This document shows, in pieces, positions 25,768 to 28,717 of a DNA stretch of 46,838 bases. The stretch is from IMG/VR virus record IMGVR_UViG_3300008085_000025, positions 1-46,838 of that record; one strand, 5' to 3'. Position numbers and translations under genes: made by a program. How positions within the stretch are numbered: the first letter of the stretch is position 1; each line of letters opens with the position of its first letter. Under the pieces are notes generated by a model. That model was not told where the DNA came from. It was given only the letters and a program-made list of their open reading frames with translations, and searched no databases. The DNA comes from a virus. Taxonomy: Duplodnaviria > Heunggongvirae > Uroviricota > Caudoviricetes.

Positions 25768-27474
25768 ATGAGCAAAAGATTTGAAAATACGGAAGACTTT
25801 ATTGCAAAGTATAAAGTAGCACACACCAACAAATTGAAGTTAGAAGAATTTGCTTGGTTAATGGGAATAAAACCAAAAAGTGTCGCAAGACGAAAGCTTT
25901 CAGTAAAGCATCATTCTGGTTTCGAACTACCAGAACTTTCTCGCTATGAGCCCAATGTTAAAAAGTCTCATGCAATGAGACCGAGTGATGAAGACATCAA
26001 CAATTATGAAGTAGGTTTGGCCAAAATACAAAAAACCCAAGGCAAATTTGTCATGGAAGTTCACGAAAATGTGAATAAGAAAAAGAAAGCTACTTACATA
26101 GTCACTTCGGCCCAGAACGCAACACCGGTTCATGAAAATTTTCTTAAGTGTCTCGAAAATTACGCACAAATTAACGATGCACAAATTATGGTCATCCCGT
26201 ATCGATATAGAAATCCTACATCGATATGGAATTTCAACAACACCGACCATGAATGGTGGGATTCGAAGCTAAAAAACTACACACTTGAAAATCATATAAA
26301 GCTAAATGATCATCTTCGTGTTATGGCACAGATTTCAATTCAGCCCACGGCAACCAGACCGTTGTCCGGATTCGATCATGTGACCGGTCAGGATTCTGCC
26401 ATATTCGGACACCCCTCTATCGAACAAAAAACGATTCCGACTCCAGCACAGAAGCTTCCTAAGATATTGACAAGCACTGGTGCTGTTACCACACCAAACT
26501 ATACAGACTCCAAAGCAGGGCACAAAGGGGAGTTTAATCACTGTTTAGCTGCGGTAGTAGTAGAAATAGAGGGCGATCGTTTTTACATTCGGCATGTCCA
26601 CGGTGACCGGCATACCGGAGCGTTCTATGACAAGGATACCCTTTACACTATCGAAGGCGCTGAGAACGGCCACAGGGTCGCTGCTCTGGTGACCGGTGAT
26701 ATCCATGCAGAGTTTCATGATCCTTCTGTGGAAGCCGCCACATATACAGACAAAAACTCGATTATGAACGTTTTAAATCCCGAAGTGTGGGTTCTTCATG
26801 ATCTTGAGGATTTTTATCGCAGAAATCACCACCACCGAGGCAACGACATCATTGCTTTTGGGAAACATCATTATGGAAGGAACAATGTAGAAGACGGTTT
26901 GCAGATTTCCGCAGATTTTGTTGATCGACATTCCAGAAAAAATATGGTTAATTTGATAGTAAAATCCAATCATGATGAAGCGCTTGATAGATGGCTGGGG
27001 GAAGCTGATCCTAAATCCGATCCGGAGAATGCCGTTCTGTATCACTACCTAAAGTATCACCAGTACAAGAGTGTACGGATGAGCCGAACCGGTTTTAAAA
27101 GTTTTGATCCTTTCAAGTTTTGGTGCGAAAACCCGGAGTCCCGTCCCGGTTTGCGAAATATAGAAAATACACATTTCTTGGAACGCGATGAGTCTTTCGT
27201 TATTGCTGGGATCGAGATCGGGTTCCATGGGGACAAGGGTCCCAATGGTGCAAGAGGTAGTATTAATAACTTTTCCAAAATCGGGCCAAAGACGATCATA
27301 GGTCACAGTCACTCTCCGGGAATTTTTCATGGGACATATCAGGTTGGGGTCAGTGCTTATACAGACCTAGAATATGCTTCCGGTCCAAGCAGTTGGATGC
27401 AAACCCACTGTGTAGTTTATCCAGACGGTTCAAGAACTCTAATTCATATTGTAAAGGGTAAGTGGACGTTCTAA
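25768..27474 (+). CDS. Metallophosphoesterase-fold nuclease, T5 A1-like, with N-terminal HTH-like segment
   Basis: TSAQNATPVH, GDIH, HD.ED, SNHD, GFHGDKG.NGARGS, GHSHSPG, GPSSW..TH, GKW end. Confidence 0.65.
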   Translation: MSKRFENTEDFIAKYKVAHTNKLKLEEFAWLMGIKPKSVARRKLSVKHHSGFELPELSRYEPNVKKSHAMRPSDEDINNYEVGLAKIQKTQGKFVMEVHENVNKKKKATYIVTSAQNATPVHENFLKCLENYAQINDAQIMVIPYRYRNPTSIWNFNNTDHEWWDSKLKNYTLENHIKLNDHLRVMAQISIQPTATRPLSGFDHVTGQDSAIFGHPSIEQKTIPTPAQKLPKILTSTGAVTTPNYTDSKAGHKGEFNHCLAAVVVEIEGDRFYIRHVHGDRHTGAFYDKDTLYTIEGAENGHRVAALVTGDIHAEFHDPSVEAATYTDKNSIMNVLNPEVWVLHDLEDFYRRNHHHRGNDIIAFGKHHYGRNNVEDGLQISADFVDRHSRKNMVNLIVKSNHDEALDRWLGEADPKSDPENAVLYHYLKYHQYKSVRMSRTGFKSFDPFKFWCENPESRPGLRNIENTHFLERDESFVIAGIEIGFHGDKGPNGARGSINNFSKIGPKTIIGHSHSPGIFHGTYQVGVSAYTDLEYASGPSSWMQTHCVVYPDGSRTLIHIVKGKWTF

Positions 27475-27511
27475 TGGGTCACCCGGCTATAAAGAGGATA
27501 AGGGAGATTGT

Positions 27512-27521
27512 GGGGGGGGGG
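27512..27521 (+). repeat. G10 homopolymer at the frame break
   Basis: 10 consecutive G; G9 would join ATG 27474 to ORF 27508. Confidence 0.9.
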
Positions 27522-28029
27522 AGTCGAATGTGGAAGCGATGTTGCAGATTTCCTCCGCTCTTACATGAATATAAATCCTTCACCTCTACAGATTAGGATA
27601 TTGCATCATTTGTCGAAAAACAATATGAGTGGGGTTGCAGGGCCGAGGGCATCAGGCATTACTACCGCAGTACTAGGACATTTGCTATATAATTTTGTCG
27701 ATAAAAACCATCAAACAATTGTGCTAATGGCCAACAACATGCAATCGGCGAAACACAATTTAACAATTTTCAGAGATATGATGTTGTCGATTAACCATCA
27801 ATATATTGATATCAATACGAACATCAAATGCACCAAATGGGGACTAAAACTAATTAACGGTTCTAGGGTAATGGCTACAAACACGGTGCGTTCTTTCGAG
27901 GGAGCACACATTACACATTTGTTTGTAGACGACTTCTACAAGTATAATTATAGAGACGGTTCAGAACTTTTAGATTGTATATACCCTGTGATGGCACGTA
28001 ACAATGGTCAAATTATTTTAGGGTCAACG

Positions 28030-28248
28030 GGTGGTACGGTTCCTGTGAGCAGTAATATATTCCCTACATTACAAGTGTAACCCGTTTTTTCATATTATAC
28101 TATTTCTCGTAAATATCTTTAGAGATGATATAGATGTGAAAACGGTGATAACCCTATAACTATATAAGTGTGCAGCCGACCCAAATTATTTCATCGAGCG
28201 TCTCGCAGCAGGAATCCCCTCCCTAAAGTGAGGGGGGGGGGTGTCGAG
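28030..28248 (+). mobile_element. Non-autonomous IS200/IS605-like insert (right end / TnpB omega-RNA-like scaffold); boundaries approximate
   Basis: 3' end GCAGCAGGAATCCCCTCCC-TAAA-GTGAGGGG...GGTGTCGA resembles the IS605-group right end (GAAGCAGGAATCCCC-hairpin-GGGGAGGATGTCAA); contains stop codons and separates two in-frame halves of the TerL paralog; no tnpA or tnpB; left end not identified. Confidence 0.5.
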
Positions 28249-28442
28249 ACAAGTTGTTTGTCCCGTAACGAAGGGGATTTGTTTGAGGAAATGTGGAACA
28301 ATGGGTTGAGTGAAGGTTCTCCAATGAATTCTATAAAGATCTCTTGGGACACCGTCCCATATAGAGACGAAGAGTTTAAACGACGCACGATTGACGCTAT
28401 AGGCTTAGACCAGTGGAATAAAGAGTATGAGTTTTGGGTGTA

Positions 28443-28717
28443 GAGCATGGCTATAAGAAACTGGTAACTTTTGTGGATCGTAGATGGTCTACTGGAGATT
28501 TGTATACACAAATAGTTTCATTTTATCTAAGTCAATTGAACCGGATTATTATTTCTGCAAAAACGACATACGCCTACACAAATTCAATCTGAGAAACTCC
28601 CCATCTGAAATAAACAAAGATTGTTCCATAAACGAGGCAGCAATGGCTTTGGGGTATTTAAAAATTTGGGATTGCGGTAAATTAAAATTCGAAAAAGTGT
28701 TGTTGCCAAGGTCATAG
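28443..28717 (+). pseudogene. Frameshifted C-terminal remnant of a Hef-like homing endonuclease
   Basis: Frame 28443 KLVTFVDRRWSTGDLYTQI, a 1-nt loss at about 28515, then frame 28484 FILSKSIEPDYYF...RLHKFNLR...GYLKIWDCGKLKFE. Confidence 0.75.

Follow-up and report, generated by a model that had tools for sequence, protein, structure and literature searches.

An uncultured aquifer jumbo phage carries, just upstream of its intein-bearing TerL gene, the last 52 nt of a transposon of the IS605 family. Very probably this is a worn-down IS605/TnpB tip in an already dead second TerL-like gene (paralog B), left by insertion and then deletion and without function. The window analyzed here makes up the first 46,838 nt of a linear virus record of 117.8 kb that is 34% complete, and the phage of this record is present in many aquifer and spring metagenomes. 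In a preliminary description of the window, positions 28030 to 28260 were read as one 231-nt insert that ends in an IS200/IS605 right end and splits a TerL paralog starting at 27474 (paralog A). The identity of the right end proposed there was correct, as seen from homology to the ends of tnpB elements, but the IS similarity is confined to 28196 to 28247. The interval is not a single insert: 28030 to 28080 are the tail of paralog A, 28081 to 28146 are a spacer of syntenic phages, and 28160 to 28198 are TerL-like coding sequence. The features are listed in Table 1.

Table 1. Features of the locus upstream of TerL (window coordinates)
Feature	Position	Strand	Characteristics and evidence
TerL-like ATPase paralog A	27474..28080	+	Stand-alone, ~201 aa; natural stop 28078-28080; homologs, synteny, P0006
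Phage intergenic stem-loop	28082..28146	+	z=-3.0; aligns with L022 and L024 spacers; no IS-profile score
T4-type late promoter motif TAAATA	28110..28115	+	In stem loop, 35 nt before GTG 28145
N-terminal remnant of second TerL-like gene (paralog B)	28145..28198	+	TAA at codon 5 (28157-28159); profile positions 11-24
IS605-family right-end remnant, 52 nt	28196..28247	+	Last TnpB codons and stop, GAAT guide, hairpin, G run, TCGA
Interval replaced by 475 other nt in minor allele	28199..28545	+	Joint 28198 to 28546 in X10, X13; loose end in X24
C-terminal remnant of paralog B (end of TerL ATPase region)	28248..28443	+	Profile positions 192-247; BLASTP
Homing-endonuclease C-terminal remnant	28484..28717	+	PHROG 3339/559; smaller remnant at same site in L021/L026

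Identity and limits of the IS605-type right end

Unbiased BLASTn of the flagged interval against plasmids returned weak matches, the best of them at tnpB 3' ends, and the same search against phages gave nothing meaningful. A 31-nt core of the remnant had 79 matches in Moraxellaceae genomes, all of which are IS ends, from tnpB-gene or gene-less copies, and nearly all of which terminate in TCAA. The remnant is 45/50 identical to the right ends of an element on a viral contig (L120), which encodes a full TnpB (NF040570), and of a Psychrobacter element (L054). It still reads as the last TnpB residues followed by a stop, and the guide tetramer (28212-28215) stands at the 5' foot of a subterminal hairpin (28216-28235), as is the rule for IS200/IS605 right ends. 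It is present as a single copy, and its first 3 nt are common to paralog B.

The upstream limit of the similarity is sharp. An nhmmer profile built from the final 151 nt of the family aligns only from model position 101 (28195) onward, over positions 101 to 148, and the 20, 40, 60, and 101 nt upstream of the remnant score like random sites (17 to 55% of which score as high). With a covariance model of the family, the remnant reached 40 bits compared with 59 to 168 bits for family members; as the model was built from donors picked for the 31-nt core, the core match is partly by construction, and the evidence independent of the model consists of the unbiased plasmid search and the flanking matches. 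The donors have a 7-bp stem just upstream of the end, with double changes in 5 of the 7 pairs, a covarying structure that was derived from these same related sequences and is thus support rather than proof. The phage remnant keeps only the 3' arm of this stem, its 5' arm and loop being gone, whereas gene-less Moraxella copies retain the stem. One Moraxella atlantae genome holds dozens of such gene-less copies of the same family, ~340 nt long, beside full tnpB copies (L035-L109).

The remnant has decayed as a DNA end too, because it terminates in TCGA in place of the family's TCAA and its hairpin lies 12 to 14 nt from the end rather than the 10 nt of all donors, so that the TCAA cleavage site 10 nt past the hairpin foot is lost. 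The distance in IS608 is also 10 nt (PMC3201880). No other IS end with a terminal TCGA was found in viral contigs. Pairing of TCGA at 28195-28198 with the terminal TCGA, as a compensatory pseudoknot, was considered and rejected. The 5' tetramer lies in a stem and differs freely from donor to donor, whereas TCAA is kept, and the minor allele described below assigns the tetramer to paralog B.

In the window, the hairpin loop is an exact inversion that differs by four substitutions at 28222-28229 from all other covering assemblies and three runs; the form in the other assemblies is the canonical IS sequence, and the inverted loop reflects a misassembly or a rare allele. Two assemblies (L013 and L014) have a G-to-A variant at the hairpin foot, window position 28212. 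Against a decaying scar stands the good preservation of the remnant's 40-nt core, which is almost fixed in ~25 assemblies; these, however, derive from a small number of closely related samples, and a recent event would account for the pattern as well.

Paralog A and a probable second TerL-like gene

Paralog A is an independent gene and is not split by an insert. Its nearest homologs are stand-alone proteins of 201 to 214 aa that end at the same place, 15 to 25 residues past a shared IILGS strand and with a similar last motif, and none of the homologs has a C-terminal part like that past 28080. The gene is syntenic in four related phages (L021, L022, L024, and L026), in which the neighboring 568-aa protein is 77 to 91% identical and the gene is followed by either a short spacer and an unrelated 67- to 71-aa gene or a tiny endonuclease remnant, and then by TerL. 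Since the stand-alone homologs and the syntenic genes end alike, 28030 to 28080 are the natural coding tail of paralog A. A conserved stand-alone gene of this kind (~200 aa, TerL-ATPase-like, nuclease-less) lies just 5' of TerL in L021, L022, L024, L025, and L026 as well as in the window. Near the start of paralog A, a G run (27512-27521) has 9, 10, or 11 G among assemblies, with 10 in the window; only 9 G, the length in 1 of ~20 assemblies, puts the start, which is conserved in relatives, in frame for the full 201 aa. The variable run may be a slippage switch, a mark of a pseudogene, or a sequencing error. It is followed by GTCGA and resembles the IS tip (17/19 nt alike).

Stop codons are present within 28030-28260, and deletion of these 231 nt does give an open frame, both as described before; the in-frame join, however, fuses two different genes, and the gene that is interrupted is paralog B, which starts near 28145. 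The open frame and its TerL-like spacing would suit a non-autonomous PATE of 231 nt (or ~200 nt) that split paralog A and could be excised by TnpA in trans, and the phage does have two real gene-less IS605 mini-elements elsewhere. Family left ends follow a TTAT target motif, however, and neither this motif nor a left-end hairpin was found at 28030 or elsewhere upstream of the remnant. The interval holds paralog A's own tail, the conserved spacer, and TerL-like codons, the paralog A homologs end where they do, and no joint of 28029 with 28261, as expected of an empty site, occurs in four runs or ~25 assemblies. We regard such a PATE as highly improbable. The two mini-elements, each ~290 nt, lie outside the window at G000:C1:70811-71101 (minus strand; L117) and 110664-110949 (plus strand; L118). 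They are 84% alike, with a TTAT target motif, a left-end hairpin, a TnpB-tail-like segment, and a right end; they belong to a family other than that of the 52-nt scrap and are the better candidates for gene-less guide RNAs (PATE/omega-RNA) in this phage.

The spacer behind paralog A forms the long stem noted earlier (28082-28092 with 28137-28145), and it is phage DNA, not IS derived; the stem is strong in the L024 spacer and not in that of L022. Rfam matches on this AT-rich stem were chance hits of miRNA type only. TAAATA is invariant in the L022 and L024 spacers, and throughout the plus strand it stands 28 to 47 nt upstream of 17 of 34 gene starts compared with a background of 3%. Given this position before half of the plus-strand genes, we take TAAATA at 28110 to be a late promoter, from which GTG 28145 is at the usual distance and the IS scrap is probably transcribed passively.

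Both flanks of the scrap are TerL-like. The segment 28160-28198 encodes the TerL N-terminal motif KCA-DP-YFI, and the 13-mer at 28160 ranks second of 129,889 contig peptides, behind TerL itself (27.2 bits versus 15.7 bits for the next). On the other side, the product of 28248-28443 is 32% identical to residues 210 to 261 of the L024 TerL (BLASTP, E=5e-10). The flanks are collinear on the TerL profile with a gap of ~167 positions, ~160 codons missing between them, and we infer that they once formed one gene. In two runs, a minor-allele unitig with ~1/5 of the local depth departs from the reference precisely at 28198|28199 and rejoins it at 28546. Its 475 nt are 158 codons plus 1 base. The readable part, the last 30 nt, comes from a run other than the two with the joint and in this frame encodes a TerL-like segment, PLLST, at codon ~151, compared with 154 for the L024 TerL. 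Indirectly, then, the 475 nt fit the lost middle of paralog B. The gene also has the TAA at codon 5, and neither allele is intact. The minor-allele junction abuts TTAT, the family target motif, which is too common to count as evidence.

Neither an intact paralog B nor an empty-site allele of it was found, and the alternative allele, sought in viral and metagenome contigs with its readable end or its left junction, had no match. This result and the high variability of the interval upstream of TerL among relatives would be at home in another history of the same scrap, in which the TerL-like flanks come from different genes or recombination brought in the IS tip together with the C-terminal piece. 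A single gene accounts more simply for the collinearity and for the fit of the 475-nt allele, and we consider the other history very unlikely.

Proposed history of the scar

The gene neighborhood consists of DnaB, TerS, the 568-aa protein, the TerL-like ORF, the endonuclease remnant, and the intein-bearing TerL, with T4-related large phages as the best database matches. The interval tolerates insertions, since in a related phage a complete IS607 element (serine transposase and TnpB) adjoins a truncated TerL-like ORF there (L030:8162-9836). In another related phage (L027/L028:7721-10551), the interruption of TerL follows the Walker B strand and consists of the start of an intein and an endonuclease ORF of 551 aa, which ends in a WDCG-type motif, as does the endonuclease remnant of the window. 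The earlier statement that the window has no tnpA or tnpB holds for the whole 118-kb contig, in which neither gene was found and which covers about one third (34%) of the genome.

In the history that we propose, a second TerL-like ATPase gene, paralog B, of perhaps ~245 codons, would have stood behind paralog A and the late promoter. A tnpB element of the IS605 family would have landed in it at 28247|28248, immediately upstream of ATPase motif III. Subsequently, a deletion with its joint in a short sequence, GAG, that both sides share would have taken ~160 codons of paralog B, the left end of the element, and almost the whole of tnpB, so that the terminal 52 nt of the element stayed behind. 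GAG is a Glu codon in both genes, and Psychrobacter ends have the same GAGCGT. The remnant would then have drifted by point changes and slippage, TCAA becoming TCGA and the G run expanding; a single A-to-G change in an L120-like tail would give an 8-G run, now 10 to 12.

By itself, the scar has little significance, as an IS relic next to the terminase gene in an interval that is dispensable and decays fast. It is a hint of a past encounter between this phage and an IS605 family that today is common in Moraxellaceae and in other Gammaproteobacteria, and as a clue to the host it is weak.

Comparison with known systems

In phage T4, late-promoter hairpins (I-TevI, segB, soc, and e; PMC2988022) likewise have the promoter motif in the loop and the stem over the next start region. 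Here, in contrast, the gene downstream of the stem is dead, and translational control by the 28082-28146 stem is only putative.

The preliminary description had also proposed a miniature splicing element. IStron 3' splice sites sit at the IS right end (PMC10690162) and G28248 lies at a codon boundary, as would be expected of an IStron remnant whose splicing brings the two halves together at the RNA level. However, G28248 belongs to the flank, the last IS position being 28247; the supposed exons come from two genes, there is no room for a ribozyme core, and no group I intron was found by Rfam in the window or by RF00028 in the contig, even at E<=1. Self-splicing is hardly credible here.

Nor is the remnant an intact omega-RNA, as an orphan guide-RNA scaffold would have to be. 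The 52-nt tip could be imagined to serve as an omega-RNA, in minimal or rebuilt form, or as a decoy: on a late transcript running from TAAATA at 28110 through 28267 it would have a substitute scaffold and would engage, late in infection, a host or phage TnpB in trans, aimed at the uninterrupted paralog B of sister phages. The promoter ~135 nt before the end and the intact terminal hairpin agree with this, and gene-less elements can provide omega-RNAs in trans (10.1101/2023.03.14.532601). Against it, 28115-28247 folds no better than shuffled sequences (z=-0.5), the covarying stem that gene-less Moraxella copies keep is halved, and the contig offers neither tnpB nor a guide target: the would-be guide, the first 16 to 20 nt from 28248, is paralog B sequence to the right of the scrap, and elsewhere in the contig it matches over no more than 8 nt. 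We judge a retained guide function to be very improbable. In the features tested, the remnant differs from PATEs, omega-RNAs, and IStrons alike, and it is a relic.

Its closest counterparts are the IS605-family tnpB elements of Moraxella, Psychrobacter, and Acinetobacter (NZ_CP024444.1 NP7_RS11060; L054; L120), which have the same hairpin, GAAT guide, and last TnpB codons with stop. Compared with these, the remnant is without tnpB and left end and has TCGA for TCAA and 2 to 4 extra G. PATEs (10.1101/2023.03.14.532601; ~340-nt copies in M. atlantae) are likewise protein-less IS605 ends in an intergenic-like context, but they keep both ends and the covarying stem, of which the remnant keeps neither. 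The case warns against calling an orphan omega-RNA from the end hairpin alone, since such a call requires the complete scaffold. The omega-RNA of ISDra2 TnpB has a scaffold of 116 nt, in which four stems are combined with a pseudoknot to nucleotides ~100 upstream (PMC10097598); the terminal hairpin adjoins the guide position in the remnant too, whereas with 52 nt all 5' partner strands are missing. If the reading as a minimal omega-RNA were true, the remnant would be the smallest natural TnpB guide scaffold.
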